Source: Acidobacteriota bacterium
GTDB lineage: Bacteria; Acidobacteriota; Vicinamibacteria; Vicinamibacterales; CAVVIG01
DNA: 43,522 nt
Direction: 5' to 3'
Assembly: GCA_046726355.1 (NCBI GenBank)
Contig: JBKPAI010000164.1
Location: 1 to 43,522 of the forward strand
This document shows positions 16,766-34,613 of this stretch, one piece after another. Under the pieces are notes generated by a model. It saw only the letters and a list, made by a program, of their open reading frames with translations, was not told the origin of the DNA and did not search any database. A program made the position numbers and the translations under genes. Positions within the stretch are counted from its first letter, which is position 1; every line of letters begins with the position of its first letter.

Positions 16766-16949
16766 AATGCGTCCCTCATTCATGGACTGGGCGAGTCACG
16801 CACAGCAAACAGCCTCCGCGTCCTCCGCGTCCACCGTGGTTGACTCTGTCATGTCGCTGCCTGGCGCTTTGGGGTTATATTCTGGCCGGTCATTCTCAGG
16901 CCAGCCGGAGAAGCCGATCAAGGGAAAAATCGACGCGTCTGAGGGGATC

Positions 16950-19379: not shown

Positions 19380-22300
19380 ATGGGAAGCGTGCGGTGGTCA
19401 CGGCTGGTCGTTATCGGGTTGCTTTGTCTCGGCAGCGCGCATCACGCGTCTGCCCAGGGAACCGGGACGCTCACCGGCACGGTCATCGACAGCATCGGCG
19501 CAGCGCTTCCCGGCGCAACCGTCAGCGCGAAAGAAGCCAACACCGGCTCGGTCCGAACGGCGGTCTCGAACGAAGCCGGGTTGTTTCGACTCGCCGCCTT
19601 GAACCCCGGCCGCTATTCGATCAGCGTGGAGCTCGCCAGCTTTCGAACCCTCGAGATCGCGGATGTCGCTCTGTTGAGCGCGGAGACGCGCGATCTCGGC
19701 AGGCTGACATTGGAGATTGGCGGCGTCACGGAGAGCGTTTCCGTGACATCCGACATCACGCCGGTGCAGCTGGCAGACAGCTCACGGCGAAGCACGTTGA
19801 CGGTGGACGATCTCGCGAACATCCAGACCAAGGGGCGCGATGTGTTCGGCCTCATGGCCATCCTGCCGGGGGTCCAGGACACCAACCTGAATCGCGACTT
19901 CGCGCAGTGGCGATCGGCGATTTCGATCACGATCAACGGCGCGCCGTCGCAGAACAAGGACGTGCGGGTCGACGGCCTCAACATCGTCGACGAAGGCGGC
20001 TGCGGCACCGCCTTCGTCAACCTGAACATGGACGCGATCGGCGAAGTCCAGGTCATCGCCAACGGGTACACCGCTGAAAACGGGCGGAACAACGGAGGCC
20101 TGATCAGTATCGTCACCAAGTCGGGCACGAGCTCCTTGAAGGGCTCGGCCTGGTACAACGGCCGGCGCGACCGCTTCAACTCGAACGACTACTTCCGCAA
20201 GGCATCGGGGCAGCCGAAGCCGCTCTACCGCGTCAACATTTCCGGCTACGGCGTGGGGGGGCCGGTCGTCATCCCGGGCCTCATCGACAGCCGCAGCGGC
20301 AAAGCCGGAAGCAGAAAGCTCTATTTCTTTGTCTCGCAGGAATACACCGACGATGCGCGGCCGACCACGACGAGCCGCGCGAACATGCCGACCGCGCTGG
20401 AAAAGATGGGGGACTTCTCCCAGACGCGCATCACCAACGGGACCATCCAGCCGATTATCGATCCACTCACCGGACTGCCGTTCCCCGGGAACGTGATCCC
20501 GCCAGGCCGCATCAACCCGCTCGGGCAGCAAATGTTGAACCTGCTGCCGACCGCCAACGGGATCCTCGACCCACGCCCCGGCCAGGAGTGGACGTCGAAT
20601 TCAACCTACGATCTGACGCCGCTGCACGGCCGCACCAACAACGTCGTGCGCATGGACGCGGTGATGACCGAGAAGACGCGCACGGCATTCCGGTTCGTCA
20701 AGGACCGTGACGATGACTGGAGCTGGAACAGAATCACGCCGGGCACCGGGTTCGTGAACCAGAACACGCCGGGCCTGTTGGGATCGGCCACCGTCACGCA
20801 GGTGCTCACGTCGAACGTGGTCAACGAGATGAACTTCGGCTACACGCACAACCGCTGGGGCCACAAGGCGGCGGACGACTTCGATTACAGGACCTTGTAT
20901 GCGGCGACGCTCGGCATCAATGCGCCGAGAATCGAGCCGTTCGGCGCCTACTCCGATCCACCCCACCTCTCGGGGTTCGGCGGGGCCCAGACCGACGAGT
21001 GGCCGTACGCGCCGCGATTCAGTACGACCGGCGGCAACCGCGCGAACCTGGGCAACTATCGCGTGGCGAACGGCAGCATCCAATCGGCGGATGAACCGAT
21101 CCCGAAGCTGAATATCAGCGCCCGTGCGTCCTTCGGCGACGATTTGTCGGTCACGACAGGCCGCCACAACATCAAGATGGGCGCCTATTTCGAGTACGAC
21201 AAGAAGACCGAGCCGGGCTCGCCCGACTACATGGGGAACTTCAATTTCGGCCACGACGCGAACAATCCGCTCAGCACCGGCAACGGCTACGCGAACATGC
21301 TGCTCGGCGTGTTCACGACCTATACCGAGCTGACCAACCGCATCGACCGGGACGTCCGGCACTGGCAGATCGACAGCTATCTCCAGGACAACTGGCGAGC
21401 GACGCCGCGCTGGACGTTCGACTACGGCGTGCGGCTGCAGCACAGCGGGTCGGACTTCGAAGTCAACGACATGAACAGCGGCTTTTTCGCCGACCAGTGG
21501 GATCGGACGCAGGCCGCGCGTGTGTACCGACTGGTCTGCATGGATGGCCGTCCCGGCGATCAGGCCTGTCCGGCGAATCTCCAGCGGACGATCGATCCGG
21601 CCTATCCGACCGTCTTCCTTCCCTCGGCATTCAACGGCAACATCGTCCAGGGCACGGGCAACCAGATCAACGGCATCCGGACCGGCGGCATCCCCGGCCG
21701 GAAGGTCGGCACGTACTTCACGTTTCCGGGGCTCAAGGCGGCGCCGCGCGTCGGCTTTGCCTGGAACATGTTTGGCGACGGCAAGACCGCGCTGCGCGGG
21801 TCGGCAGGCATCTTCTACAACTTCCCGCGATCGACGGGCACGGGCGGTTATGCGTTCGCATCGGCGAACTGCCCGATCTCCTGCAGCAATCAGATTCGCT
21901 GGGCGACCTTCGATGATGTCTCGAACGCCGCCGCGCTCGGGACCAGAATCGTGCAGAATCCGGTGACCGTGAATCTGGCCGACTACCAGCAGAATCTCGC
22001 CAAGTCGTACAACGTCAACCTGGCGTTTCAGAAAGACATCGGCTTCAGCACGGTCGCGGAAGTCGCGTATGTCGGGAATTTCGCGCGCGAGCCGGGCCGG
22101 CTGGTCGATGTCAACCGCCTGCCCGTCAACGTCTATGGCAACCCTGCCAACCTGGTGAACAACGCGCCGGTCAACGCGAACTCCCTCAGACAGGTGTATG
22201 GAAAATATCCCGGCATGGGATCGGTGATGGCGTTCGTTCCCGATCTCTACCCGGAGTCGCTGCGCTATAACGCAATGCAGCTCAATGTCGTACGCCGCTT

Positions 22301-23120
22301 GTCGAAGGGCCTGCAGATGGGCATGGCGTACACGCTTTCCAAGGCCGAGGGCTATACACCCTCGAACACGTTTGGCATCGGGTACGATCCCTTCACCGAC
22401 GAGCTCGGTGGCGAGCAAGCCATCAAGGCACGCTACTGGGGGCCGACGACCGACGATCGCCGGCACAATCTGGTCGTCAATTACAGCTACAACATTCCGT
22501 CCCTGATCGTCAGACCGGTCCTGACGCACGTGCTGAGCAACTGGCAGGTGTCGGGCGTGACAAGGCTCCTGAGCGGCCAGGCGGTGACACCAAGCTGTAT
22601 CTCGAACAACAGCGGCATCGGCAACACCAACCCGTCGCTCACCGACGGCTTCTTCAACACCAGCCAGCTGCTGACGGCACGGTGCGAGTTGACCGGCGAA
22701 CCGATCTTCAGCGGCTATACGGTGGACAGAAGTCTTCCGTTCGCGGACCAGCCGCATTTCAATCTGGCTGCGTTCCGCATGCCGCAGCCCAATGGAAGCG
22801 CCGGCAACTTCGGCAACACGCCGATCGGGATCCTCCGCAACCCGACGTGGCACGAGTGGGACCTGACGCTCTCGCGGCGCTTCCCGGTCACCATGCGCGG
22901 ACGCAAGAACGCCGGCATCAGGCTGCAGCTGCAGGCATACAACGTGTTCAACGAGGTGCAGTTCACGACGCTGAACGCAGCGTTCACCTTCACCGGCCCG
23001 AACAACTCGGTGAACACCAACGCCAACACCGGGAAGTACGTCGCCACCGGCGGCAGCAACCTGGCAGCCGGGACGATACAGCCGCGGACGATGGGGTTGA
23101 CCGTGCGGTTCGACTGGTAG
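19380..23120 (+). CDS. Large (1246-aa) TonB-dependent receptor-like outer-membrane protein with a CarboxypepD_reg N-domain.
   Basis: A signal peptide (MGSVRWSRLVVIGLLCLGSAHHASAQ) is followed by TGTLTGTVIDSIGAALPGATVSAKEANTGSVRTAVSNEAGLFRLAALNPGRYSISVELASF. A long barrel follows, ending in a terminal aromatic (…RFDW). AAGGAGG lies 6 nt upstream of the ATG. Confidence 0.88.
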   Translation: MGSVRWSRLVVIGLLCLGSAHHASAQGTGTLTGTVIDSIGAALPGATVSAKEANTGSVRTAVSNEAGLFRLAALNPGRYSISVELASFRTLEIADVALLSAETRDLGRLTLEIGGVTESVSVTSDITPVQLADSSRRSTLTVDDLANIQTKGRDVFGLMAILPGVQDTNLNRDFAQWRSAISITINGAPSQNKDVRVDGLNIVDEGGCGTAFVNLNMDAIGEVQVIANGYTAENGRNNGGLISIVTKSGTSSLKGSAWYNGRRDRFNSNDYFRKASGQPKPLYRVNISGYGVGGPVVIPGLIDSRSGKAGSRKLYFFVSQEYTDDARPTTTSRANMPTALEKMGDFSQTRITNGTIQPIIDPLTGLPFPGNVIPPGRINPLGQQMLNLLPTANGILDPRPGQEWTSNSTYDLTPLHGRTNNVVRMDAVMTEKTRTAFRFVKDRDDDWSWNRITPGTGFVNQNTPGLLGSATVTQVLTSNVVNEMNFGYTHNRWGHKAADDFDYRTLYAATLGINAPRIEPFGAYSDPPHLSGFGGAQTDEWPYAPRFSTTGGNRANLGNYRVANGSIQSADEPIPKLNISARASFGDDLSVTTGRHNIKMGAYFEYDKKTEPGSPDYMGNFNFGHDANNPLSTGNGYANMLLGVFTTYTELTNRIDRDVRHWQIDSYLQDNWRATPRWTFDYGVRLQHSGSDFEVNDMNSGFFADQWDRTQAARVYRLVCMDGRPGDQACPANLQRTIDPAYPTVFLPSAFNGNIVQGTGNQINGIRTGGIPGRKVGTYFTFPGLKAAPRVGFAWNMFGDGKTALRGSAGIFYNFPRSTGTGGYAFASANCPISCSNQIRWATFDDVSNAAALGTRIVQNPVTVNLADYQQNLAKSYNVNLAFQKDIGFSTVAEVAYVGNFAREPGRLVDVNRLPVNVYGNPANLVNNAPVNANSLRQVYGKYPGMGSVMAFVPDLYPESLRYNAMQLNVVRRLSKGLQMGMAYTLSKAEGYTPSNTFGIGYDPFTDELGGEQAIKARYWGPTTDDRRHNLVVNYSYNIPSLIVRPVLTHVLSNWQVSGVTRLLSGQAVTPSCISNNSGIGNTNPSLTDGFFNTSQLLTARCELTGEPIFSGYTVDRSLPFADQPHFNLAAFRMPQPNGSAGNFGNTPIGILRNPTWHEWDLTLSRRFPVTMRGRKNAGIRLQLQAYNVFNEVQFTTLNAAFTFTGPNNSVNTNANTGKYVATGGSNLAAGTIQPRTMGLTVRFDW

Positions 23121-23147
23121 CCGAGGTTTCCGCCAGGCACGCGGACG

Positions 23148-23219
23148 ATCAACGCAGAACTCGCGGAACACGCAGAACGGATGATCCTTCTCTGCGAGTT
23201 CGGCGGTCTCTGCGTTGAT
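23148..23219. terminator. Long imperfect hairpin (ATCAACGCAGA … TCTGCGTTGAT outer stem) 28 bp after the stop of the 19380..23120 gene.
   Basis: 11-bp perfect outer stem with partially complementary inner arms. Read directly. Confidence 0.4.
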
Positions 23220-23288
23220 TGTCGTGTCTGTCGTTGACGTCGAAACGATTTCGTGCGACGTGATGTTGGAACTTTTGAGACGACCTGG

Positions 23289-24467
23289 ATGCCCGCGTCC
23301 TGGCTTCTCCTGACCCTGCTCTTCTCCTGCGAGACAGGTGCACAACCCACCGATCCCGCAGCGCACATCCGCGCCGCGGCCCAGGCCGCGCGCGAGGGAC
23401 GGTTCGACGACGCGGTCACAGAACTTCACCAGGCGACCGATCTGGCGCCGGGGCTGCCGGCTGGCTGGTACGCACTCGGGCAGGCGTACAACGACATCTC
23501 AAATGAGGCAGTCGCCAGCTTCGATACTCCGCACGAGTCGTCGTGGCGGCAACTGATCGCGGCGGACGCCCTGTTCGCCCGCGGCCGGCTGACCGACGCG
23601 TTCACGCTGTATCGCCAGGCCCTCGAGCGGCTGCCGTCGATGATCAGCGTCCACGAGTCGATCGCGCGGATTTACGAACAGGCCGGGCACGCCGACTGGG
23701 CCGAACGCGAGCGCGATGCTGCCGCCGGCTCGACAGTCGACTGCGCCGCGCGCCGCGCGCTGTGCGAGTTTCGCGCCGGCCAGCATGCGGCGGCGCTCCG
23801 GGCGGCCTCTGCGCAAGCCGATCCCGAATCGCGATACTGGCGGGCGCGCGCGGCCGCGGAGCTCTCGCGTGCCGCGTTCGCGCGCCTCGACGCGCTGCCC
23901 GATTCAGCGGAGCGGCGGGGCGTGCGCGCCGCGCGGGCGCGCGCCGAGGAGCGGCATCTCGACGCGATCGCCGAGCTCGAGGCGGCGCTGACATTCGCGC
24001 CCGGCGACCCGGCGCTCCTGTACGATCTTGCGTCCTCGTACTACGCCGCCCGCGACTACGATCGGGTGCTGGGGACTCTCACGCCCCTGCTCCGCGCCCA
24101 TCCGGATGATCCGCGGCTGCTCAAGTTGATCGGCTACTCGCTGCTCCGGCTGCGGCGGCTCGACGAGGCGCTGCCTGCCCTTCGCCGCACGGTTGAACGT
24201 GATTCATCGGATCCGGGATCGCGGCTCGCACTGGGGCGTGCGTACCTGCAGAACGGCGAGTTCACCCGGGCGATTCCGTTGATCGAGGCGCACCTGGCAG
24301 ACGATGAGGACGGCAGCCTCCATGTCCAGCTTGCGCGGGCGTACGGGCGACTGGGAGAGCGAGACAAGGCCGCGCGATTGCTCGAGAGGTCCCAGGAACT
24401 GCAGCGTGCCGCCGACGAGCGGATCGAGGCGGCCGCGCGGCGGACGATCACGCCGCCCCAGGAATAA
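23289..24467 (+). CDS. Secreted tetratricopeptide-repeat (TPR) protein.
   Basis: A signal peptide (MPASWLLLTLLFSCETGAQ) is followed by multiple TPR-like helical pairs. No SD was seen; an alternative GTG start at 23253 is listed by the ORF track. Confidence 0.75.
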   Translation: MPASWLLLTLLFSCETGAQPTDPAAHIRAAAQAAREGRFDDAVTELHQATDLAPGLPAGWYALGQAYNDISNEAVASFDTPHESSWRQLIAADALFARGRLTDAFTLYRQALERLPSMISVHESIARIYEQAGHADWAERERDAAAGSTVDCAARRALCEFRAGQHAAALRAASAQADPESRYWRARAAAELSRAAFARLDALPDSAERRGVRAARARAEERHLDAIAELEAALTFAPGDPALLYDLASSYYAARDYDRVLGTLTPLLRAHPDDPRLLKLIGYSLLRLRRLDEALPALRRTVERDSSDPGSRLALGRAYLQNGEFTRAIPLIEAHLADDEDGSLHVQLARAYGRLGERDKAARLLERSQELQRAADERIEAAARRTITPPQE

Positions 24468-24471
24468 ATGA

Positions 24472-24620
24472 GATTGTTGATTGCTGATTGCTGATTGCTG
24501 ATTGTCGATGACTGATTGTTGATTGTGGAGTGGCTGATCAGCGACGCGATCACATCCAGCGATGATCAATCTGCAATCAGCAATCAATCAGCAATCAGCA
24601 ATCTACAATCAGCAATCTCA
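24472..24620. repeat. 149-bp palindrome made of about 9 direct GATTGCT-type heptads, a central spacer, and about 8 inverted CAGCAAT heptads. It fills the whole gap between two convergent stop codons.
   Basis: Read directly. The left arm is 24472..24535 and the right arm 24562..24620. It starts 4 nt after the TAA of the TPR gene, and its right end includes the stop codon of the minus-strand gene. Confidence 0.85.
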
Positions 24621-26330
24621 GGGTTCTCTGACGTCCATCACCTGATTCGCCTTCACGTTGTCCACCGTCTGCCGCATGCCCGATGGCCATTGCACCTCTA
24701 CGCGAACAGTCCGCGCCGCGCCCAGACCAAAATGGACACCGGCATGGGAAGACGACGAGTAGCCGGAGGCCGTCGTCATCGTCCGCACCTGACTGCCGAC
24801 GAGAACACGAGCGCCGATGCCGTCGCGATTGCTCGTTCTGCCGACGAGACGAACGATCAGCCACCGGTTGTCGGGTGCGCTGTCATTCCTCCACAACTCG
24901 GCGCGCCCACCGAGCACCAGGACGACGAAGTCGAGGCGGCCGTCGCCGTCGAGATCGGCGGCGCCGCACCCGCGGTGCACGGCCGCCGTCGCGCCAGTGC
25001 CTGCCTCCACGGACGCGTCGCGAAAGTGGCCGCGCCCGTCATTGATGAAAAGCCCGTTCGGTTGTTGCCACGCCACGGCCTCGAACTCGCCGATCCGGTC
25101 GTTGACGTGCGAGTTGGCGGTGAAGATATCCTTCCAGCCGTCATTGTCGACATCGGCGAGAATCGTGCACCAGCCGGACGATTTCACCGACAGCGGCGCC
25201 AGACCGGTGGCCTGCGTGGTCTCGACGAATGCGCCGTGGCCGTCGTTGCGGAACAGAGGAAACGTCTCACCGGCCAGCGCCGTGAGATGAACGTCTTCCC
25301 AGCCGTCGTTGTCGTAGTCCTGGAAATCGACGCCCATGCTCGAGATCGGGCGGCCCGAGTCGGTCACTGACACGCCGGCGGCGAGCGCCATGTCAGTGAA
25401 CGTGCCGTCTCCGTTGTTGCGGAACAGGAAGTTCGGAACCGTATCGTTGGCGACGAAGATGTCGAGACGCCCGTCATGGTCGAAGTCGGCGACGGCTGCG
25501 CTCATGCCCTTTCCGGTGTGGGCTGAAATCCGGCTCGGCGCCGAGACATCCTCGAACGTCCCGTCGCCGCGATTTCGATACAGCCGGTTCGGCAGGCCTT
25601 GAAATGACCGCGGATGGCAGTGGATCGGAATCGCGCGCACCTCGTCGCGGCAGGAGGGATTCGTTTCCGGCGACCATCGCACGTAGTTCGCGACGAAGAG
25701 ATCGAGGCGGCCGTCGTTGTCGTAGTCCAGCCAGGCGGCGGCAACAGCCCATTCGCCGCTCGCAATGCCCGCCTGGCTCGTGACGTCCTCGAAGCGGCCG
25801 TCGCCGCGATTGCGCAGCAGCTGGTTTCGAGGGACGCCCGCGACGAACAGGTCGACATGACCATCGTTGTCGTAGTCGGCGGCGGCCGCGCCCATGGCAT
25901 ACCCGACGCCGGCCACGCCGGCGGCATCGGTAACGTCGGTAAACCGCAGCTGCCCGTCGTTGCGGTATAGACGATTCGAGTCCACACCTGGACGCTTTTC
26001 GAGCGACGCCGCCGGCGCGCCGTTGGTGAAGAAGACGTCGGGACGGCTGTCGCCGTTGTAGTCGAAGATCGCAAGCCCGCCAGGCACGCTGTCGACGTAG
26101 TATTTGGCTGGACTGGACGCGGCCGGGCGGACGAAGTGCAGGCCGGCCCTGTCGGCGACATCTCGCAGGAGCACGCGGGCCCGGGTCTCTGGCCGCTGGC
26201 CGAGTCGCCCCGCCGGGAACGCGCCTCCCGCGGTCAGACCGAGCAGCGCGGCGATGAGAGAAACGCCGCATGGACATTGCCCACGAGGCACGGTGACGTA
26301 AGTGTAGGGCGATCTCACCGCAGAGGACAC
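24618..26330 (-). CDS. CRTAC1-family / ASPIC-UnbV protein with FG-GAP-like repeats.
   Basis: Repeated DYDNDGxxD(L/I)FV and FRNxGDGTFxDV units, with a UnbV_ASPIC-like C-terminus (…VRVEVQWPSGMRQTVDNVKANQVMDVREP). The 5' end (GTG) sits inside a repeat hairpin, so the true start may be a few codons downstream (e.g. VPRGQCPCGVSLIAALLG…). Confidence 0.82.
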   Translation of the reverse strand: MSSAVRSPYTYVTVPRGQCPCGVSLIAALLGLTAGGAFPAGRLGQRPETRARVLLRDVADRAGLHFVRPAASSPAKYYVDSVPGGLAIFDYNGDSRPDVFFTNGAPAASLEKRPGVDSNRLYRNDGQLRFTDVTDAAGVAGVGYAMGAAAADYDNDGHVDLFVAGVPRNQLLRNRGDGRFEDVTSQAGIASGEWAVAAAWLDYDNDGRLDLFVANYVRWSPETNPSCRDEVRAIPIHCHPRSFQGLPNRLYRNRGDGTFEDVSAPSRISAHTGKGMSAAVADFDHDGRLDIFVANDTVPNFLFRNNGDGTFTDMALAAGVSVTDSGRPISSMGVDFQDYDNDGWEDVHLTALAGETFPLFRNDGHGAFVETTQATGLAPLSVKSSGWCTILADVDNDGWKDIFTANSHVNDRIGEFEAVAWQQPNGLFINDGRGHFRDASVEAGTGATAAVHRGCGAADLDGDGRLDFVVLVLGGRAELWRNDSAPDNRWLIVRLVGRTSNRDGIGARVLVGSQVRTMTTASGYSSSSHAGVHFGLGAARTVRVEVQWPSGMRQTVDNVKANQVMDVREP

Positions 26331-26390
26331 GGAGGAAAGATCCTGTCACTCTTTAGGATTGATCCTCCGCGTCCTCAGCGTCCTCCGTGG
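26324..26390. repeat. Member of the GAGGACACGGAGG…CCTCCGCGTCCTC hairpin family. Its loop is itself a hairpin (AAAGATCCTG…AGGATTGAT) and a trailing AGCGTCCTCCGTGG box follows.
   Basis: Read directly. It lies in the divergent region between the 24618..26330 (-) and 26450..27493 (+) genes. Confidence 0.8.
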
Positions 26391-26449
26391 TAGATCCAGG
26401 CGACAGGGCGGCGAGATCGACGAAACAGATGCGATCGTGGAGGGATGCC

Positions 26450-27493
26450 GTGAAAGGTCATATTGCAGCTGCCGCCGCCGTCACGGTCGCCGTCTCCCTC
26501 TCGAACGGGACCGCCCAGACGGGCGCATCGCGAGCGCTCGACGTGCCGGCGCGCACGCTGCCGGTGCCGACGACCGTCAGCCCCGAGATGCAGGCCCTCA
26601 TCGCGGCGCCGCTCAGTCAGACGTGGAATGCCGTTCCGAAATCGGCGGACGAATGGAAAGCGCTGTCGGCGCCGTCCGCGGGCCGAGGTCTGCCGGAGCT
26701 GCGCGCACGATTGGGCGTCAAGTCGGACCACATGGTCCTGAACGGCGTGAACGTCTTCATGCTGACGCCTGAGGTGATTCCGCCTGAGAATCGGAACCGT
26801 CTACTCGTCCACGTGCACGGCGGCTGCTACGTCCTGGGCGGCGGCGAGGCAGGAACGAGCGAAGCGATCTACATGGCGGGCTTCGGACACTTCAAGGTGC
26901 TGTCGGTCGACTATCGCCGTCCGCCGGAGTTCCCGTACCCCGCCGCGCTCGATGATGCCATCGCGGTGTGGAAGGCGGCACTGAAGATGGCGAGGCCCGG
27001 GAACATGGCCATCTTCGGCACGTCAGCCGGCGGCGCCCTGACATTATCAACTGTGCTGCGCGCGAAGCAGGACCGGTTGCCGCTGCCCGGAGCCATCGCG
27101 CCCGGCACGCCGATGTCGGACCTGACGGGGGCCGGCGATTCCTTCCACACCAACTTCATGATTGACAACATCCTGGTCGGCAGCGACGGCCGCTGCGATG
27201 CGATGGCCAGGCTCTACGCAAACGGCCACGATCTGAAAGATCCGCTGTTGTCGCCGGTGTACGGCGACATGCACGGATTTCCTTCCGCGATGCTGACCAC
27301 GGGCACGCGCGACCTCCTGCTCAGCAACACCGTCCGCGTGCATCGCAAGCTGCGCCAGGCGGGCGTCGACGCCGAGTTGCAGGTGTTCGAAGGGCAGTCG
27401 CACGCCCACTACCTGCGCGACGCCAACGCGCCCGAAACGAGGGAAGCATTCGAGGAGATCGCCCGGTTCTTTGACAGGCATCTTGGCAAATGA
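26450..27493 (+). CDS. Secreted alpha/beta hydrolase (fold-3 esterase/lipase type).
   Basis: HGG-type oxyanion motif (LLVHVHGGCYVLGGG), nucleophile elbow GTSAGG, and a signal-like N-terminus. The GTG start at 26450 has GGAGGG 5 nt upstream. The longer ORF from 26387 is rejected. Confidence 0.82.
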   Translation: MKGHIAAAAAVTVAVSLSNGTAQTGASRALDVPARTLPVPTTVSPEMQALIAAPLSQTWNAVPKSADEWKALSAPSAGRGLPELRARLGVKSDHMVLNGVNVFMLTPEVIPPENRNRLLVHVHGGCYVLGGGEAGTSEAIYMAGFGHFKVLSVDYRRPPEFPYPAALDDAIAVWKAALKMARPGNMAIFGTSAGGALTLSTVLRAKQDRLPLPGAIAPGTPMSDLTGAGDSFHTNFMIDNILVGSDGRCDAMARLYANGHDLKDPLLSPVYGDMHGFPSAMLTTGTRDLLLSNTVRVHRKLRQAGVDAELQVFEGQSHAHYLRDANAPETREAFEEIARFFDRHLGK

Positions 27494-27503
27494 GGAGGGC
27501 GCG

Positions 27504-28502
27504 ATGAACAGGTGGGCAGTCCTTCCTGACCAACACACGATGAACCGGCGCGAGTTTCTGCTCGCCGCCGCCGCCGCGGCGTCCGCCGCGCGCCCGCGCC
27601 GACTGCAGGCGCAGAGCGCAGCGCAGGCGAGACAGGCGAAGCAGAGCACTCTGGACCGCATCGCCATCATGACGCTGAACTTCCAGAGCATGCTGAAGCT
27701 TCCCGACCTGCCCGAGGGCCCGAACCGGACGCTCGAGCTCTTCGCCGTACCGGAGATGCTCGCCGATCGCTACGGCGTCCACAAGGTTGAATTCCAGCAC
27801 TATCACATTCCGTCGACCGAGCCGTCGTACCTGAAGGAGCTGCGCGCACACATCGAGAAGACCCGCTCGAGGATGACGCAGATCAACCTCGAATTCGGCA
27901 TGCTCAACATGTCGGCGCCGGAGCTGCGAAACCGGCTGATGGCGATCGACCTGACCAAGATGTGGGTCGACCATGCCGTGATGCTTGGTGCCCAGCGCGT
28001 CATGATCAACCAGGGGCAGCCGACGCACGAGAACAAGGTCTACGGGATTCCGGCGCTGAAGGCGATGGCCGACTACGGCCGCTCCAGGGGAATCATTGTC
28101 TCAGTCGAAACGCGCGGCGGCGGAGGCGGGCGTGGACGCGGCGCGTCGGCTGAGGGTGCCGCCGGCGCGGCCGCAGCGCCGCCGCCGCCTCCGCCCGTAC
28201 CGCCCGGGCCGCCCACCTGGACGCTGCTGGCGGAGATCGTCAAAGGCGCCGGCGCCTACTCCAACGTGGACGTCGGCGGGGCAAATGCGGCCGACCAGGA
28301 AGAGCTGCACGCGTGCCTGCGAACGATGTTTCCGATGACGGCCGGCAGCATGCATACGCGGGTGAACGCGCGGTGGGATCTGGCAACGGCGATCAAATTC
28401 CTCGAACACGAACTGGGATACAAGGGCCTCTACACGATCGAAGCGAGCAACGGCCACGAAGGGACGCAGCCGATTTACGACGTGGTCGTGGCAACACTGT
28501 GA
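27504..28502 (+). CDS. Tat-exported xylose-isomerase-like TIM-barrel protein (sugar-phosphate isomerase/epimerase family) with an internal Gly/Ala/Pro-rich insertion.
   Basis: GGAGGG lies 4 nt upstream of the ATG at 27504. A Tat motif is present (MNRREFLLAAAAAASAARP). A low-complexity insert RGGGGGRGRGASAEGAAGAAAAPPPPPPVPPGPP lies at nt 28113..28214. The gene begins 10 bp after the upstream hydrolase gene. Confidence 0.8.
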   Translation: MNRWAVLPDQHTMNRREFLLAAAAAASAARPRRLQAQSAAQARQAKQSTLDRIAIMTLNFQSMLKLPDLPEGPNRTLELFAVPEMLADRYGVHKVEFQHYHIPSTEPSYLKELRAHIEKTRSRMTQINLEFGMLNMSAPELRNRLMAIDLTKMWVDHAVMLGAQRVMINQGQPTHENKVYGIPALKAMADYGRSRGIIVSVETRGGGGGRGRGASAEGAAGAAAAPPPPPPVPPGPPTWTLLAEIVKGAGAYSNVDVGGANAADQEELHACLRTMFPMTAGSMHTRVNARWDLATAIKFLEHELGYKGLYTIEASNGHEGTQPIYDVVVATL

Positions 28503-28580
28503 AACAGCAGCGAAGAGAACGGAGCAGACGGAGGAAACGGTATAACCACAGAGGAGCGGAGGAACGGAGACGAGCAGAGC
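28503..28580. repeat. Solo copy of the ACGGAG-rich element (…GACGGAGGAAACGGTATAACCACAGAGGAGCGGAGGAACGGAGACGAGCAGAGC…), starting at the first base after the stop codon.
   Basis: Near-identical to the reverse complement of 5948..6009 and similar to 5748..5813 and 34506..34596. Confidence 0.8.
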
Positions 28581-28616
28581 AATGACTGAAGTTTGACAAG
28601 AATAAATTCCTTTGCG

Positions 28617-28686
28617 CTCTTCGCGCTTGCCAAGCCGTAGCTCGCGTCAATTGCGGGGCGAGCGAAGGTTGGGCCTTTGCGTTCCA
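28617..28686. promoter_or_regulatory. ~70-bp leader element (CTTCGCGCTTGCCAAGC, ~22-nt variable region, GAGCGAAGGTTGGGCCYTTGCGT) 47 bp upstream of the DUF1080 gene start. A second copy lies at 35666..35730, upstream of the kinase gene.
   Basis: The two copies were aligned by eye. The flanks are conserved and mutually complementary (CCTTCGCGC with GAGCGAAGG) around a divergent middle section. Confidence 0.6.
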
Positions 28687-28733
28687 CGGCAGCATCAGGT
28701 ACTCGGACACTCTCCACGGTTTGAAGGTTCAGC

Positions 28734-29507
28734 ATGCGATCGAATGCCACGCTCATCACGTTGTTGGCCGCCTTCCTCGCCACAGCCACTGCACGGTCAC
28801 CCTCCGCCCAATCTCCCGCGCACTGGAAGGCGCTGTTCAACGGCAAGGATTTCACCGGCTGGGTGGTGCCGCCCGGCCGCGGCGCGGCGCCCGATGCGGC
28901 CCCGCAGAATCCCGCCGACACGGGCTGGAAGCTCGAGAACGGGATCGTGACCGGCGGGCAGCCCGCACCCGGGCAACGCGGCGGCAGTCTCGTGTCGCAG
29001 GCGCAGTTCAAGGACCTCGAGCTCGAGCTCGACTTCCTCCTGGCAGAGCACGGCACCAGGTGCTCCGCGGACGTCGTTGATCCGAAACAGGAAAACGCCA
29101 GCGAGGACAAGCGCTGCCTGTACAACAGCGGTGTGACGCTGCGCACGGCCTATCAGGTGAATATCGGACGACGGGAAGCAGGCGAGTTCATCGGGGTCGT
29201 GGTCCATCGCGTGAGCCCGAAGGCAATCCGGGGCAATGTCCTGTGGCTCGACACCGGGGACGAGAAGTTTCCGAACCTTCGCCGGAAGGAAGATTGGAAT
29301 CACCTGCAGATCGCCTTCAAGGGGCCGCACCTCCAGGTCTGGCTGAACGGGACCAGGATCTGCGACGTGACCGACAACCCGACGGATCCATCGGAAGCGA
29401 AGTGGAAAGAGGCGGGACCGATCAGTCTGCAATGGCCGCCCGCCGGGGAGTCCGGAGGGTTCGCAGGGTACGTGAAGTTTCGCAATCTCCGGGTGCGGGA
29501 GCTCTAA
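28734..29507 (+). CDS. DUF1080-family protein (3-keto-disaccharide hydrolase / LamG-like), secreted.
   Basis: A signal peptide is followed by HWKALFNGKDFTGWVV…GWKLENGIVTGG…FKDLELELDF…YNSGVTLRTAYQVNIG, the characteristic DUF1080 motif order. Confidence 0.85.
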   Translation: MRSNATLITLLAAFLATATARSPSAQSPAHWKALFNGKDFTGWVVPPGRGAAPDAAPQNPADTGWKLENGIVTGGQPAPGQRGGSLVSQAQFKDLELELDFLLAEHGTRCSADVVDPKQENASEDKRCLYNSGVTLRTAYQVNIGRREAGEFIGVVVHRVSPKAIRGNVLWLDTGDEKFPNLRRKEDWNHLQIAFKGPHLQVWLNGTRICDVTDNPTDPSEAKWKEAGPISLQWPPAGESGGFAGYVKFRNLRVREL

Positions 29508-29508
29508 C

Positions 29509-31224
29509 TTGAATCGTCGAGAGTTTTTCGAGCGCTCCCTTGCCGCCGCCTCGATGGCCGGGGCGGGTCGGGTCGGCGAGGCTGCGATGATTCAGTCGTC
29601 TGCACGCGACGAGTGGTTCTCCAGTGTGCCGGCCGGTCGATCCGTCGTGCGCGCCAGTCACGGGATGGTGGCGACCAGCCAGCCGCTCGCTTCCGAGACC
29701 GGTCTCGACATTCTGAAGCGAGGCGGCAACGCCGCGGATGCGGCTATCGCCATGGCCGCCGTCCTCAACGTGACCGAACCGCACATGACCGGGCTCGGCG
29801 GCGACGTCTTCGCGATGATCTATTCAGCGAAGACGAAAAAACTCGAGGGGCTCAACGCGAGCGGGCGCGCGCCGCGGGCGCTGACCCTCGACTATTTCCG
29901 ATCGCGGAAGATCAGCGATATGCCGCTCACCGGCATGGCGCCGGTCACCGTGCCCGGCGCCTTCGACGGCTGGGTGACGCTGCTCGACAAGTACGGCACG
30001 ATGACGCTCGCCGACCTGCTGGCGCCGGCTATCGGTTATGCCGAGAACGGGTTCCCCGTCATGGAGAAGACCGCGGCCGACTGGGAACCCGAAGTGGCCA
30101 AACTGAAGCTGACCGCGGCCGGCGAGTCGACGTACGTCGTCAACGGGCACGCGCCGCAGCCCGGCGCGCTGTTCGTTCAGCGCAACCTGGCGCGCACGCT
30201 GCGGATGCTGGCACAAGGTGGCCGTGACGCCTTCTATCGCGGCGAGATCGCCAGAACGATCGTGGACTACTGCCGCATGCACGATGGCTTTCTTTCCGTC
30301 GAGGACTTCGCATCGCACAAATCGGAATGGGTGGAACCCATCTGGACGACCTACCGCGGCCACACGCTCTACGAGCTGCCGCCGAACGGTCAGGGTCTGA
30401 CCGCGCTGCTGCTGGTGAACCTCCTCGAGGGCATCGACCTGCAGTCGATGCGGAGCGACGCCGCCCTCTACTACCATACGATCATCGAAGCGACCAAAAT
30501 CGCCTTCGCCGATCGAAACCGGTACATTGCCGATCCCGCGTTCGCGAAGGTGCCGGTCGCCGAGCTCCTGTCGAAGGATTACGCCGCCCGCCGGCGCGCG
30601 CTCATCGATTCGAAGAGAGCGATCGATCCGCCGGCCTACGGCGACATCCGCGTCGGTCACGACACGACCTACCTGACCGTGATCGACAAGGACCGCAATG
30701 CGGTCTCCTTCATCAACAGCATTTTTTCGGCGTTTGGATCCGGCGTCGTTGCCGGCGATACGGGGATCGTGCTGCAGAACCGCGGCGCCGGCTTCTCGCT
30801 CGATCCGAACCACCCGAACCGTCTCGAACCGGGCAAGCGTCCGTTTCACACCCTGATTCCGGGGATGGTCTTCAAGGACGGCCATCTGCTGATGGCCTAC
30901 GGCGTCATGGGCGGCGACGTGCAGCCGCAGGGACACGCGCAGGTGCTCGTCAATCTGATCGATCGCGGCCTGAACCTGCAGCAGGCGATCGACGCGCCGC
31001 GGGTGCGGTACATCAGCGGCCGGGGCGTGATGATGGAGGACGAACTGGGCGCGCCGGTCATCAGCGAGCTGGTGCGGCGAGGCCACGAGCGCGTCATGCC
31101 CGGGCCCGGCCTGACACATCGCGCCCTGATGGGCGGCGCTCAGGCGATCATGATCGATCCGGTCACCGGTGCCCTCTCGGGCGCTTCCGATTTCCGCAAG
31201 GACGGACTTGCCATCGGCTATTAG
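29509..31224 (+). CDS. ggt: Gamma-glutamyltransferase (Tat signal).
   Basis: Tat N-terminus (LNRREFFERSLAAASMAGAG) and the GGT large/small-subunit pattern, including the nucleophile region GHDTTYLTVIDKDRNAVSFINSI and GGD…MAYGVMGGD. The start is TTG, 1 bp after the upstream stop. Confidence 0.88.
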   Translation: MNRREFFERSLAAASMAGAGRVGEAAMIQSSARDEWFSSVPAGRSVVRASHGMVATSQPLASETGLDILKRGGNAADAAIAMAAVLNVTEPHMTGLGGDVFAMIYSAKTKKLEGLNASGRAPRALTLDYFRSRKISDMPLTGMAPVTVPGAFDGWVTLLDKYGTMTLADLLAPAIGYAENGFPVMEKTAADWEPEVAKLKLTAAGESTYVVNGHAPQPGALFVQRNLARTLRMLAQGGRDAFYRGEIARTIVDYCRMHDGFLSVEDFASHKSEWVEPIWTTYRGHTLYELPPNGQGLTALLLVNLLEGIDLQSMRSDAALYYHTIIEATKIAFADRNRYIADPAFAKVPVAELLSKDYAARRRALIDSKRAIDPPAYGDIRVGHDTTYLTVIDKDRNAVSFINSIFSAFGSGVVAGDTGIVLQNRGAGFSLDPNHPNRLEPGKRPFHTLIPGMVFKDGHLLMAYGVMGGDVQPQGHAQVLVNLIDRGLNLQQAIDAPRVRYISGRGVMMEDELGAPVISELVRRGHERVMPGPGLTHRALMGGAQAIMIDPVTGALSGASDFRKDGLAIGY

Positions 31225-31337
31225 AATTTGGAATTTGGAATTCGGAATTTGGAATTCGAGACCGGGAGTGCCGAATTCTGATCCCCAATTCCAAATGCCA
31301 AATCATTCCAAATTCCTAATTCCAAATTCCTAATTCC
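31224..31337. repeat. 114-bp palindrome of heptads: GGAATTT/GGAATTC x5 direct, a spacer, then AAATTCC/TAATTCC x6 inverted. It lies between the ggt stop and the permease start.
   Basis: Read directly. It begins on the last base of the ggt TAG stop and ends 3 nt before the permease GTG. Confidence 0.85.
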
Positions 31338-31339
31338 AC

Positions 31340-32713
31340 GTGTCTCCTCCCCCGCTCGCTCGCCGCTTCGGCCTGGTCCAGGCGACCGCCCTGAACATGA
31401 TCAACATGATCGGGATCGGGCCGTTCATCACCATCCCGCTGCTGATGACCGCGCTCGGCGGACCGCAGGCCATGCTGGGCTGGATCGTCGCGCTGGTGAT
31501 CGTCATCTGCGACGGCCTGGTCTGGAGCGAGCTCGGCGCCGCGTTCGCCGGGTCCGGCGGGTCGTTCGTGTACCTGCGCGAGGCCTACGGCCGCGAGAAG
31601 TTCGGGCGGCTGATGGCGTTTCTCTTCGTGTGGCAGTTCATCCTCAGCGGTCCGCTCGAGATCGCGACCGGCTACATCGGGTGCGCGCGCTATCTGCGCT
31701 ACATCTGGACCGGCCTGACGCCGACCGGCCTGCTCGGCGTCGCCGCCCTCATCGGCGCTGTCAACATTTTCCTCCTCTACCGCCGCATCACCGCGATCGC
31801 GACGATCACGGTGGCACTGTGGATTGGGACGATTGCGACGACGATTGCCGTGGTCCTGACCGGCGCGCTGCACTTCGATCGGCACGTGGCGTTCGACTTT
31901 CCGCCCGGCGCGTTCACACTGTCGGCAGGGTTTCTCTTCGGACTGGGCGCGGCGTCGCGGATCGGCGTCTACGACTACCTCGGTTACTACGACATCTGCT
32001 ATATCGGCGATGAGACAAAAGATCCCGAACGCGTCATCCCGCGATCCATTCTGCTGAGCACGGTGGCGGTTGCCGTCATTTATCTCGCGATCAACCTCTC
32101 GATCATCGGCGTGGTGCCCTGGCGCGAGTTCGTCCCGGCGGATGCAAAGCCCGACGCCGGCTTCGTCGTGTCCGCATTCATGGAGCGCGTCTATGGCCCC
32201 GCCTTCGCGAGCGTCTTCACGCTGATGATCGTCTGGACCGGATTCGGGTCGGTCTTCGCGCTGCTGCTCGGGTATTCGCGCGTCCCCTATGCTGCAGCCC
32301 GGGAGGGGTACTTCTTCAACGCCTTCAGCCGTGTGCATCCCACGCAAGGGTTTCCGCACGTCGCGCTGCTCGTCCTCGGCGTCATCTCGATTCTGACCAG
32401 CTTCTTTCCGCTCGACATCGTGATCGACGCGCTGATCGCCATGCGAATCCTCGTACAGTTCATCGGCCAGATCGGCGGCGTGGTGCTGCTTCGACGGCGG
32501 GCGCCCGGGTTGACGCGGCCGTTCCGGATCTGGCTGTATCCGGTGCCGCTCGTGATCGCGCTGGCCGGCTGGATCTTCATCTTCAGCACGACCGGGCGCG
32601 ATGTCATCCTGTTCGGCCTCGGCGTCCTGCTGCTCGGTGTGATCTGTTTTCTCGTGTGGTCGGTGCGGATCCAGCAGTGGCCATTTCGGCCTGCGGTGGG
32701 GGAGGCGCCATGA
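31340..32713 (+). CDS. APC-superfamily amino-acid permease.
   Basis: Twelve hydrophobic segments, with N-terminal motifs typical of amino-acid permeases (…ALNMINMIGIGPFITIPLL… and …GSGGSFVYLREAYG…). The start is GTG. Confidence 0.88.
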   Translation: MSPPPLARRFGLVQATALNMINMIGIGPFITIPLLMTALGGPQAMLGWIVALVIVICDGLVWSELGAAFAGSGGSFVYLREAYGREKFGRLMAFLFVWQFILSGPLEIATGYIGCARYLRYIWTGLTPTGLLGVAALIGAVNIFLLYRRITAIATITVALWIGTIATTIAVVLTGALHFDRHVAFDFPPGAFTLSAGFLFGLGAASRIGVYDYLGYYDICYIGDETKDPERVIPRSILLSTVAVAVIYLAINLSIIGVVPWREFVPADAKPDAGFVVSAFMERVYGPAFASVFTLMIVWTGFGSVFALLLGYSRVPYAAAREGYFFNAFSRVHPTQGFPHVALLVLGVISILTSFFPLDIVIDALIAMRILVQFIGQIGGVVLLRRRAPGLTRPFRIWLYPVPLVIALAGWIFIFSTTGRDVILFGLGVLLLGVICFLVWSVRIQQWPFRPAVGEAP

Positions 32714-33765
32714 GCCGGAAGTGGCGTGTGGCCGTCCTCGGCCTCGGGCATTGGTATTCGGCCTACAACCTGGCGCGTGCGCTGCGCGAATATCCACGCG
32801 CGGAGCTGGTATCCGCGGCCTGGCACAATCGAGCCCAGCTGGACGAGTTCACCCGCACCTTCGGCATCACCGGCTACGACAGCTGCGATCGGCTGCTCGA
32901 AGACGGCCACGTCGACATCGTCCTGATCGCGTCGCCGGTCGCTGAAATCCCCGACCTGACGATCCGCTCCGCCCGCGCCGGCAAGCACATGATCGTCGGC
33001 AAGCCGATGGCGATGACCGTCGCCGACGCCGATCGCATGGTCGCCGCCGTCGAGGCCGCAGGTGTCGCGTGCGTCGCCTTTCAAGGCATCATGCGCCTGC
33101 GCTTCGCCGGCCTGAAAACGCGGATCGACAACGGGGAAATCGGAGACGTCATCGTTCTGCACCAGACCAGCCGCTGGTCCATTGCCGAGGACTGGCCATG
33201 CTCCGGCACACCAGGCTGGTTCGCCGATCCGGCGCAGGTGCCGGGCGGCGCGCTGATCGACGAAGGGATCTATTGGATCGATCTGTTCAGATGGTTGGCA
33301 GCGAGCGAGATCGTGCAGGTCGAGGCGAAGACCGCCAACCTGGTTCACAAGGAGCTCGCAGTCGAAGACTGGGGGATGGCCACGTTCACAACGGCCAGCG
33401 GGGTCGTCGCCACACTGGAAGCCGCCTGGACGATCAACGCACCGCAGAAGACCGCTCCATCGCCGAAACAGAACGCCACGGTGCGGCTCGAGGTGGTCGG
33501 CAGCCGCGGCGAGATGATCGAGCAATGGTTCCGCGTGCCCGGCCGGGCCGTCCTGGCGGCCGGGGCGCGCGATTGGGTGTTCGAGCGACAGGCCGACGAT
33601 CCGCTGGCGGCTTCGGTGCCGGTCCCTCTCGATCACCTCATCGACTGCCTGGAGAACCAGCGGCAGCCGATGGCGACGATTCAGGACGCGCGAAAGTCGC
33701 TCATCGTGGCGCTCGCCGCGTACGAATCGGCACGCGAGCGGCGGCCGATCCGGCTGTTCTGGTGA
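32710..33765 (+). CDS. Gfo/Idh/MocA-family NAD(P)-dependent oxidoreductase.
   Basis: Rossmann N-terminus (WRVAVLGLGHWYSAYNLARAL) and …DIVLIASPVAEIP…AGKHMIVGKPMA… The start is chosen at MSRKW (32710), which overlaps the permease stop (ATGA). Confidence 0.82.
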   Translation: MSRKWRVAVLGLGHWYSAYNLARALREYPRAELVSAAWHNRAQLDEFTRTFGITGYDSCDRLLEDGHVDIVLIASPVAEIPDLTIRSARAGKHMIVGKPMAMTVADADRMVAAVEAAGVACVAFQGIMRLRFAGLKTRIDNGEIGDVIVLHQTSRWSIAEDWPCSGTPGWFADPAQVPGGALIDEGIYWIDLFRWLAASEIVQVEAKTANLVHKELAVEDWGMATFTTASGVVATLEAAWTINAPQKTAPSPKQNATVRLEVVGSRGEMIEQWFRVPGRAVLAAGARDWVFERQADDPLAASVPVPLDHLIDCLENQRQPMATIQDARKSLIVALAAYESARERRPIRLFW

Positions 33766-33778
33766 CTGGAGAGTGCTA

Positions 33779-33943
33779 CCACGGAGGACGCGGAGGTTTA
33801 ATCCTGAAAGGCTACAGGATTTGTCCTCCTGTCCTCCCGCCTTCGCTGAAGCGCGGGGTCCCCACGGTGCGGACTGTGCGCCGTGGGGTGCAGCTACGGC
33901 GGGCCACCGTAGCCTTGCGCGAAGGTGGCTGTGTCCTCCGTGG
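33779..33943. mobile_element. 165-bp MITE-like nested-palindrome element with terminal inverted repeats CCACGGAGGACG / GTCCTCCGTGG.
   Basis: From the outside in, the structure is as follows. The TIRs come first. Then hairpin GGAGGtttaATCCTG…CAGGATttgtCCTCC. Then the CCTTCGC…GCGAAGG pair. The central GGGGTCCCCACGG…CGTGGGG hairpin is also found at 19326..19359. No coding capacity. Confidence 0.65.
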
Positions 33944-33970
33944 TTGAATTTTGTTCGACCCGCTCCAGTC

Positions 33971-34369: not shown

Positions 34370-34505
34370 TGCGATCCTCCACCCGCCGGCCCGAGGGGGA
34401 ATTTCGGGCACGGCGACATCCCGGAGAAGAGCAAACCTACTGCCAGGCCAACCACGCGAACCAGCGGGACGTGCTGTGCAGCTCCGCTGACGCGTGCACC
34501 CGCGT

Positions 34506-34596: not shown

Positions 34597-34613
34597 ATTC
34601 AGGTGACACAATC

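Follow-up and report, generated by a model that had tools for sequence, protein, structure and literature searches.

A spacer-filling heptanucleotide hairpin between two convergent genes of an Acidobacteriota bacterium, and its turnover among relatives

Bacterial genomes have been known since 1990 to contain heptanucleotide repeats, and the cyanobacterial examples, the STRR sequences, were reportedly treated by Mazel et al. in 1990 and by Vioque in 1997; to our knowledge, neither a function for bacterial heptanucleotide repeats nor a reason for their 7-nt unit has ever been established. The repeat considered here, E1, lies at 24469-24620 of a 43,522-bp stretch of 65% G+C from a soil Acidobacteriota bacterium (Vicinamibacterales; contig JBKPAI010000164.1) -- the whole of which is referred to below as the window -- and fills the spacer between two convergent genes. 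A first-pass annotation of the window did not recognize it as belonging to a described repeat class, but such repeats have been described already, in Xanthomonas (PMC4692102), as the cyanobacterial STRR (PMC2670836) and in a survey of heptanucleotide simple-sequence repeats (SSRs; via PMC4679880). The build, position and variability of these elements are all published and E1 is not a new kind of element; what is new is the phylum, the occurrence of several heptads in a short stretch, the nested palindromes, with their 9-nt units, and the turnover traced at a single orthologous spacer. No description of heptad hairpins from Acidobacteriota was found in the literature searched.

According to Mrazek (2007), as cited in PMC4679880, heptanucleotide SSRs are the most abundant class of long SSRs in most of the genomes surveyed. 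Rehm et al. (2015) reported about 185 heptamer repeats of the GGGAATC type per Xanthomonas genome, with 70-75 cases per genome of two convergently oriented arrays that have the potential to form a stem-loop or cruciform; these repeats lie preferentially within 50 bp of a stop codon or overlap it, are under-represented in coding DNA and between divergent open reading frames (ORFs), and vary in length and sequence between Xcc and Xac at the same gene pairs (PMC4692102). The STRR are usually 7-bp repeats and form hairpins in intergenic DNA, such as those between hupS and hupL of several genera (PMC2670836), and in Nostoc PCC 7120 the heptad families reach tens of copies, such as the 79 of ATTGCGA (PMC2408588); their function is unknown, with transcript stability and translational coupling having been proposed (PMC2670836, PMC2408588). 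MacGregor (2015) described direct TAACTGA repeats in Beggiatoaceae, cyanobacteria and Bacteroidetes (PMC4679880). In Geobacter metallireducens there are sites of four or five tandem heptanucleotides, some classes of which are paired on opposite strands with a variable spacer; these have been proposed to be binding sites for global regulators or regulatory RNA elements (PMC2700814).

Tandem arrays in the window were identified with Tandem Repeats Finder (TRF) and an autocorrelation period scan, and fold z-scores were computed against dinucleotide shuffles. The features of the E1 locus are as follows.

24469-24620: E1, the whole heptad palindrome, TGAGATTG ... CAATCTCA (inverted pair I1; RNA and DNA folds)
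24472-24534, plus strand: left arm of E1, about 9 GATTGCT-like heptads (TRF 24472-24525, period 7, 7.7 copies of GATTGCT)
24535-24566: centre of E1, non-repetitive, with a small internal hairpin (GATCAGCGACGCGATC), from the sequence and the fold
24567-24617, plus strand: right arm of E1, about 8 inverted heptads (CAATCAG), including one 11-nt unit, CAATCAATCAG (TRF period 7, 7.7 copies)
23253-24467, plus strand: gene for a TPR-repeat protein, with its TAA stop at 24465-24467 (ORF; Pfam TPR_19, TPR_14, TPR_16)
24618-26330, minus strand: gene for an FG-GAP / UnbV_ASPIC (CRTAC1-like) protein, with a TGA stop (ORF; Pfam FG-GAP_3 4e-56, UnbV_ASPIC 2e-18)

E1 is a 152-nt imperfect palindrome in which about 9 GATTGCT-like heptads, a centre of about 30 nt and about 8 inverted heptads follow one another. 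The units of the left arm degenerate toward the centre (GATGACT, GATTGTG, GAGTGGC), a trend shared with E2, another palindrome of the window. The top inverted pair, I1, joins 24469-24504 to 24585-24620 over 36 nt at 92% complementarity, with many register-shifted alternatives, and the predicted stem of about 60 bp has a GC content of 43%. As RNA, the plus strand folds at -75.8 kcal/mol (z -8.3) and the minus strand at -70.0 (z -8.1); as single-stranded DNA, the element folds at -46.5 (z -7.5). TRF, the inverted pair and the fold thus agree with the earlier description of a palindrome of heptad arrays between two convergent stop codons, with the start now extended to 24469, and the free-energy calculation that had been proposed there gives a very stable structure, z being about -8 on both strands. 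The first bases of E1, TGAGATTG, lie 1 nt past the TAA of the TPR gene, while the final triplet of its last bases, CAATCTCA, is the TGA stop of the ASPIC gene. Of the four heptad elements of the window, E1 is the only one flanked by convergent genes. Reading the flanks (AATAAA before TGAGATTG, GGGTTC after CAATCTCA) revealed no direct repeat that could be a target-site duplication.

For comparison, 80 species-genome loci anchored on gamma-glutamyltranspeptidase (GGT), 80 metagenome loci anchored on ASPIC and 7 contigs found by exact-protein look-up were collected, giving, with the window, 2.15 Mb of DNA, mostly from Acidobacteriota; the loci are labelled by L-numbers (L081 etc.). The window and every compared locus are metagenome assemblies, in which the exact copy numbers of short repeats may be imprecise. 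The closest relatives of the window GGT, with 73-84% protein identity, are in metagenome-assembled genomes (MAGs) that carry the label Acidobacteriota or Vicinamibacterales. A crude GC-frame ORF model supplied the gene contexts, except for those of the window, L081-L084 and L165-L167.

The convergent TPR/ASPIC pair is kept in 15 contigs, and 12 of the 15 spacers carry heptad arrays, of 8 heptad types; the spacers measure 23-242 nt, with fold z-scores between -11.3 and -0.2. The spacers contain:

GATTGCT: window; L084 (short)
CTCAAGG / CTCAACT: L081, L082, L083
GGAATTA, the heptad of window E2: L087
CAACTCC: L086; L167 (with an inserted IS110 element)
GGAAACT: L085 (cut at the contig end)
An outer AGCTNCC palindrome around an inner GGATCCC array: L090
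CAGCTTC arms parted by a PF05635 gene: L166
TAGCGAC: L091
GC-rich DNA with short inverted repeats and no heptads: L088, L089
A spacer of only 23 nt with no hairpin: L093

The first-pass annotation had foreseen that heptad number might vary in related genomes while the palindrome is kept; the outcome goes further, as the build recurs at 12 of the 15 spacers while both the number and the sequence of the heptads change. The window and L081 have ASPIC proteins that are 91% identical and flanking nucleotides that are 85-95% identical, but their spacers (GATTGCT versus TCAAGGC) cannot be aligned, which argues for replacement rather than gradual divergence. L082 and L083, with ASPIC proteins 93% identical, have spacers of 113 and 169 nt that share both centre and heptad; the difference of 56 nt equals 8 heptads, the left arm accounting for 14 nt of it and the right arm for about 42 nt. 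Between L090 and L093 (ASPIC 94% identical) an element is present in the one and absent from the other, and the L081 spacer holds a decayed hairpin, with z -0.2. Of the two spacers with GC-rich inverted repeats and no heptads, L089 folds above background (z -2.9) and L088 does not (z -0.6). At this site, then, the hairpin can be dispensed with. Arrays thus gain and lose whole 7-nt units, and whole spacers are swiftly replaced or lost.

On a neighbour-joining tree built from ASPIC proteins, the heptad types are not monophyletic: L081 shares CTCAAGG with L082/L083, the window shares GATTGCT with L084, and L086 shares CAACTCC with L167, but the sister of these two, L166, has CAGCTTC, which also forms the outer arms of the distant L090. 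A sliding-identity test for recombination over the last 600 nt of the TPR gene and 900 nt of the ASPIC gene found no segment in which L081 is closer to L082/L083 than to the window, the sole irregularity being a fall in identity at the very end of the ASPIC gene; the spacer may nonetheless have been imported by homologous recombination. The comparison could not be extended to orthologs of E2, synteny being lost downstream of GGT in the GGT-anchored species-genome loci, except at L083, where the spacer between GGT and permease genes holds a CTCAAGG palindrome in the place of the window's GGAATTT.

In the TPR proteins conservation extends to ...ITPP; then come 1-3 variable residues and a stop codon placed at the first repeat unit or within it, and the ASPIC ORF of L087 runs into the array, ending at a TAG supplied by a heptad. 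With conserved codons ending at the repeat edge, and stops supplied or abutted by the units, the repeats fill all of the DNA that lacks coding constraint. Turnover of the repeats also seems to spill over into the 3' end of the ASPIC gene, judging from the alignment of the window with L081: over window 24618-24717, the last 100 nt of the gene, identity is 78%, versus 91-98% elsewhere, and the C-termini read MDVREP and IEIKEP.

Two of these spacers contain genes. At L166 11660-12369, CAGCTTC / GAAGCTG arms of about 180 and 100 nt are parted by a 122-aa PF05635 (23S_rRNA_IVP) gene at 11851-12219, a gene-in-loop-of-long-stem layout that resembles the intervening sequences of 23S rRNA. At L167 11660-13710, the gene of an IS110-family transposase (12065-13183; DEDD_Tnp_IS110, Transposase_20) lies inside a CAACTCC / GGGAGTT palindrome, which suggests that heptad hairpins can serve as insertion sites.

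The two arms of these palindromes are matched beyond their composition. Permuting the order of the units in one arm raises the folding energy, with p = 0.007 for E1 (where the test is affected by the 11-nt unit), 0.007 for L083, 0.033 for L082, 0.037 for L025, 0.02 and 0.04 for L030 and 0.033 for L035. Since shuffling the unit order weakens the fold of most elements with variant units, the arms mirror each other, variants included, and are not two independent expansions.

Of arrays with 5 or more units and about 82% identity, the 2.15 Mb contain 38 with period 7, 9 with period 6, 3 each with periods 9 and 12, 1 each with periods 8 and 11, and none with the rest; periods 6, 9 and 12 are those tolerated by coding DNA. 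A small shift of the thresholds gives 39 arrays of period 7, the other periods from 5 to 12 having 0-8 each; for 23 of these 39 there is an inverted partner no more than 250 nt away, and 3 more are self-complementary (e.g., GGATCCC), while arrays of any other period have at most 1 partner. The excess of period 7 and the partner counts together indicate that the period and the palindromic pairing are general in these genomes, and the first-pass proposal of a family that shares one build (direct heptads, a spacer, inverted heptads) while differing in heptad is borne out. By the crude gene model, nearly all arrays at related loci lie outside coding-like ORFs. In this small sample of arrays with placeable genes, just one case was seen in a divergent spacer: the self-complementary GGATCCC array of L167 216-245. 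The same heptad forms L090 10554-10611, at the centre of the outer AGCTNCC palindrome; being its own reverse complement in a shifted register, a GGATCCC array needs no separate second arm in order to fold.

At least 15 different heptads were seen overall. Several recur: GATTGCY is common to the window, L084, L025, L043 and L048; CTGCCTW to L006, L007, L010 and L159; GGAWTTW to the window, L087 and L008; GCTTTGT to L012, L016, L030, L035 and L043; and CAGCTTC to L090, L165, L166 and L167. In each of L083, L008, L030, L035 and L159, 2 loci in about 20 kb of the genome have the same heptad. With 1 mismatch allowed, the 14-mer search gives about 3 background matches per heptad, and isolated 14-nt matches were ignored; no probability is attached to the recurrence because related genomes are not independent samples.

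On balance, E1 is probably a hairpin-forming heptanucleotide repeat that was built by slippage and fills an unconstrained spacer, with a dispensable role at RNA 3' ends. The combination of 7-nt units, whole-unit change, mirrored arms, spacer filling and turnover fits the dynamics of simple-sequence repeats acting on the two arms of a hairpin. In the stem of a hairpin between genes, replication slippage favouring 7-nt units would expand short repeats, the complementarity of the arms would be maintained or recreated by intrastrand template switching or inverted duplication, and coding constraint would halt the growth of the array. Of the mechanisms suggested in the first-pass annotation, slippage agrees with the 7-nt steps seen in the comparisons, while a heptad-templating process found no support. 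A transcript from either neighbouring gene would carry the imperfect predicted stem of about 60 bp, and in this model the stem would most likely serve as a non-canonical barrier to read-through and to 3' exonucleases at the gene 3' end. Because its sequence is not conserved, such an RNA role would be dispensable and not the cause of any sequence conservation.

Several points weigh against this reading. The sample is small, metagenome-assembled and phylogenetically non-independent. Slippage alone leaves unexplained the excess of period 7 over 5, 8 and 10, the recurrence of heptads across loci and lineages (GATTGCY, CTGCCTW, GGAWTTW, GCTTTGT, CAGCTTC, CAACTCC) and the way in which a new array first acquires its inverted counterpart. 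The arms may differ in their number of units, L083 having 6-7 in the left one but about 9 in the right; and no U-tract follows the stems, a consensus terminator scan being silent at these sites. A separate idea, that heptads are chosen because a period coprime to 3 gives stops in all frames, was rejected as a general explanation, since GGAATTT/AAATTCC has no stop triplet and periods 4, 5 and 8 would do equally well.

The other repeat elements of the window are listed here.

31221-31339: E2, a GGAATTT / AAATTCC heptad palindrome (TRF 4.7 and 7.0 copies; arms of 32 nt at 94%; z -5.1 and -5.5)
5735-6012: E3 composite, a 278-nt nested palindrome (minimum free energy -110.7 kcal/mol, z -5.5; TRF rows and sequence)
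14350-14409, plus strand: E4, a direct-only GGCTCTN heptad array (TRF 14375-14405, period 7, 4.4 copies)
23144-23223: a palindrome of 9-nt units, (ACGCAGAAC)x3, a loop and inverted copies (inverted pair I5, 33 nt at 82%; TRF period 9; spacer fold z -7.2)

E2 lies between the GGT and amino-acid permease genes, both on the plus strand (Pfam G_glu_transpept, AA_permease_2); the GGT gene has its TAG stop within the first unit of E2, and at the other end of the element 1 nt separates it from the GTG that starts the permease ORF. The first-pass annotation had given this locus, from 31224 onward, the same build as E1, and 31224-31338 indeed has arms of 32 nt at 94% and z about -5. The flanks of E2 that were read contain neither a target-site duplication nor conserved termini. 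At window 31331-31342 the permease ORF has an in-frame TAA within the last heptads, leaving GTG 31340 as the lone candidate start, and no Shine-Dalgarno-like sequence lies upstream of it. With that start 1 nt past the hairpin, translation must begin at the foot of a stem of -41 kcal/mol, or on processed or leaderless RNA.

The neighbours of E3, both on the minus strand, are genes for a CBS-domain protein and a member of the beta-lactamase family, the composite being 72 nt from a stop. Its outer arms consist of 8-9-nt ACGGAGG / CCTCCGT units and its inner arms of TGAGTTT / ACTCAAA heptads at 5834-5937 (TRF 7.0 and 3.4 copies). The GAGTTTT locus had been assigned the same build as E1; the build holds, but the core at 5834-5937 is weak by itself (arms 73%, z -1.7 and -2.8), being the inner part of the nested palindrome. 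E4 begins 21 nt past the stop of a DUF3999 gene and upstream of a creatininase gene (Pfam, 14575-15366), both on the plus strand; it is direct-only over 14350-14409, as had been described, and gives no fold signal (z -0.5 and -1.0). All four elements sit between Pfam-supported genes, outside coding DNA. The claim that such elements directly follow stop codons is borne out by E1 (1 nt), E2 (overlapping) and E4 (21 nt); the placement at gene 3' ends adjoining stops therefore stands, but the convergent setting is that of E1 alone, with E2, E3 and E4 lying between co-directional genes.

Four different heptads (GATTGCT, GGAATTT, GAGTTTT, GGCTCTN) thus occur within 43.5 kb of one genome, none of them containing a run of 3 or more G. 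They are AT-rich, at 29-43% GC versus 65% for the genome, but the notion that heptads are always AT-rich islands was rejected, as GGATCCC, CAGCTTC, TAGCGAC and AGCCGCG are present in relatives. The autocorrelation scan of the window found 6 period-7 arrays (three elements), 1 of period 4 and 1 of period 11, and zero at periods 5, 6, 8-10 and 12-15. Among the 13 spacers of at least 40 nt in the gene map, 5 have z-scores from -4.2 to -9.2 and the other 8 have z >= -1.2. Rfam gave no match at the gathering score and, at E <= 1, just a weak isrG match at 15426-15561 that is unrelated to the elements; the gene scan found no tRNA or tmRNA genes.

A second family of intergenic repeats consists of 8-9-nt CCTCCG[TC]GT / ACGGAGG units, which carry a Shine-Dalgarno-like GGAGG on one strand and often form inverted pairs. 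Its sites in the window are 433-486, 5747-5810, 5950-6010, 14417-14439, 16813-16836, 26322-26386, 28518-28569, 33783-33837 and 34506-34579. With up to 3 mismatches, CCTCCGTGTCCTCC has 34 matches in the window, versus 7.1 +/- 3.0 expected. A perfect inverted pair of the family, 433-446 / 473-486, forms a hairpin, and the motif also occurs twice in the TPR/ASPIC spacer of L084. The palindrome of 9-nt units at 23144-23223 is built in the same way as the heptad palindromes and lies between an outer-membrane-protein gene and the TPR gene. The sole period-11 array of the window, a direct array of 13.5 copies of the 11-nt unit GGGACGGAGSC at 191-338, is downstream of the 3' end of the gene for a 1019-aa outer-membrane protein (517-3576, minus strand) and has the ACGGAG core in common with the 9-nt family. 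Bordered by arrays of 9-nt repeats, a 244-aa ORF at 33773-34507 has no Pfam match and a third-position GC of 0.64, versus about 0.8 in its neighbours; on these grounds, window 33766-34493 may be a long non-coding spacer and not a gene.

One alternative to slippage is that the hairpins are selected bidirectional terminators or mRNA 3'-end stabilizers, needed where genes are convergent or closely packed, with the heptads serving just as raw material. This is possible, though it seems the less probable explanation. It would account for the recurrence of the hairpin build at one spacer with at least 8 unrelated heptads, for arm mirroring beyond the expectation from unit composition -- which inverted duplication or template switching predicts equally -- and for the avoidance of coding DNA by nearly all elements. 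Placeable palindromic elements were not seen in divergent spacers, apart from the self-complementary L167 array, and the heptad-less L088 and L089 have GC-rich inverted repeats in their place, of which only those of L089 fold above background. But the hairpin is absent from the 23-nt spacer of L093, whose ASPIC protein is 94% identical to that of L090, and is decayed in L081, with L088 also at background, and the stems have no U-tract after them. Only 1 nt separates the end of E2 from a start codon, and all three of E2, E3 and E4 have co-directional neighbours, so that termination there would interrupt an operon or cut expression of the downstream gene. A consensus terminator scan of 20000-35000 gave 11 sites, versus 9.0 expected by chance, with none at E1 or E2, and the combined scan for consensus promoters and intrinsic terminators gave counts at chance level and none at the elements. 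The missing U-tract, the co-directional setting of three of the four window loci, and the absence or decay of the stem in some close relatives all argue against a strictly required terminator; and as three of the four loci are not between convergent genes, the bidirectional terminator that the first-pass annotation offered as a candidate function cannot be the general role.

A second alternative, that E1 is a non-autonomous mobile element with heptad-built ends, like a MITE (miniature inverted-repeat transposable element), a repetitive extragenic palindrome (REP) or a REPIN, moved by a transposase encoded elsewhere, is improbable. The presence of one heptad at two or more loci per genome (2 each in L083, L008, L030, L035 and L159), the incongruence of heptad type with the gene tree and the replacement of the whole spacer between the window and L081, whose flanks are about 90% identical, are all as expected of such an element. 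On the other hand, E1 and E2 lack target-site duplications or conserved termini, copies with a common heptad differ in their centres (as do the two of L030, a and b), no transposase or RAYT-type gene is present among the window ORFs scanned with Pfam, and the length differences between close relatives consist of whole heptads within the arms.

Equally unlikely is the proposal that the arrays are binding sites for a protein that reads 7-nt units, with the repertoire under selection; the protein might be a regulator, or a protein whose cold-shock domains each bind one heptamer and which melts the stem. Bacillus subtilis CspB does bind heptamer direct repeats, one protein per heptamer (reviewed in PMC4679880), one arm of the elements is usually G- and T-rich, the heptads that recur in Vicinamibacteria-like and Blastocatellia-like genomes form a limited set, and a hairpin function fails to explain the sharp preference for exactly 7. 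However, at least 15 heptads overall, with 4 in 43 kb of one genome, are hard to square with sequence-specific recognition, the units degenerate freely, and arrays of 9- and 11-nt units with the same build or genomic position are also present.

There is likewise only a slight chance of a phylum-wide system of spacer-filling hairpins, in which a dedicated process would copy a limited set of shared heptads from locus to locus and put them back at the same gene ends, the candidates for the machinery being a heptad-reading protein or a hairpin-directed recombination or template-switch pathway. If this were so, the 7-nt preference, the mirrored arms and the heptads incongruent with the tree would reflect that machinery and not plain slippage, and the system would be a functional analogue of REP/RAYT without sequence conservation.

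An assembly artefact, by chimeric fold-back or repeat collapse, is very improbable, despite the origin of the window in a MAG and the poor performance of short-read assemblers on tandem repeats and palindromes: E1 lies inside a 43.5-kb contig and has an intact gene on either side, the build recurs at this spacer in assemblies made independently from other samples, and four window loci share the pattern.

The TPR/ASPIC spacer offers a way to rates: with at least 8 heptad hairpins, decayed forms or none at all between flanking proteins that are 64-94% identical, the birth, growth by 7 nt, mirroring, replacement and loss of the arrays can be measured against a gene tree. In practice, heptad spacers are unfit for the annotation of small ORFs or as alignment anchors and are likely weak points in short-read assembly, and gene 3' ends in Acidobacteriota are often set by a stop codon that a repeat supplies.

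Among the described systems, intrinsic terminators also place a stem-loop directly downstream of the stop, and the symmetric stem of E1 could act both ways; but where those have 5-15 GC-rich pairs and a U-tract, E1 has a stem of about 60 bp at 43% GC with a U-tract on neither strand. REP, BIME and REPIN elements are likewise intergenic imperfect palindromes at gene 3' ends, proposed there to act in termination and mRNA stabilization; REPs are conserved high-copy units of 20-40 nt, with GTAG or CGTC heads, linked to RAYT transposases (PMC3733652), whereas here the arms are tandem heptads, the four window loci share no sequence and the window ORFs scanned with Pfam include no RAYT gene. Unlike a MITE, E1 has no target-site duplication, and loci with a common heptad have unrelated centres. 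In Xanthomonas the one dominant, G-rich heptad per genome has been read as forming G-quadruplexes (G4), whereas the window has four heptads without G-tracts; having no run of 3 or more G, they do not belong to the G4 subclass (GGGNATC). E1 is a member of the heptanucleotide-repeat hairpin class and falls outside the G4 subclass, REP/REPIN, MITEs, intrinsic terminators and the Rfam families.

Within the heptanucleotide repeats, the Geobacter sites share the pairing of arrays but have a fixed copy number and a consensus conserved across 16-49 sites, and are not long spacer-filling hairpins (PMC2700814). The TAACTGA repeats are also intergenic heptamer tandems found across distant lineages, and often end about 1 nt from a start codon, as E2 does; they differ from E1 in being nearly all direct (1 inverted among 170 sets), of 2-6 copies and a single heptad, and upstream of genes (PMC4679880). 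The Xanthomonas repeats share with the elements described here intergenic 7-nt tandem units in a genome of about 65% GC, inverted array pairs (I1, I2 and I10 in the window, and the 23 of 39 arrays above with a partner within 250 nt), a position near or overlapping stops, rarity in divergent spacers (as far as this small sample goes) and variability between relatives at one gene pair, though the arms of E1 are longer, at 8-9 units, and fill the whole spacer. The STRR share the 7-bp tandem units, the several heptad families per genome, the intergenic position and the formation of hairpins; they reach tens to about 100 copies per family per genome in AT-rich genomes, whereas the window is GC-rich and from another phylum. 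The 43.5 kb of the window hold four different heptads, and the repetition observed in relatives is of one heptad at 2 loci in about 20 kb. The replacement of heptads at one orthologous spacer across many relatives, seen here, was not found documented for STRR in the literature searched. By analogy with these last two systems, E1 is most likely the Acidobacteriota counterpart of the cyanobacterial STRR hairpins and of the inverted heptamer pairs of Xanthomonas.

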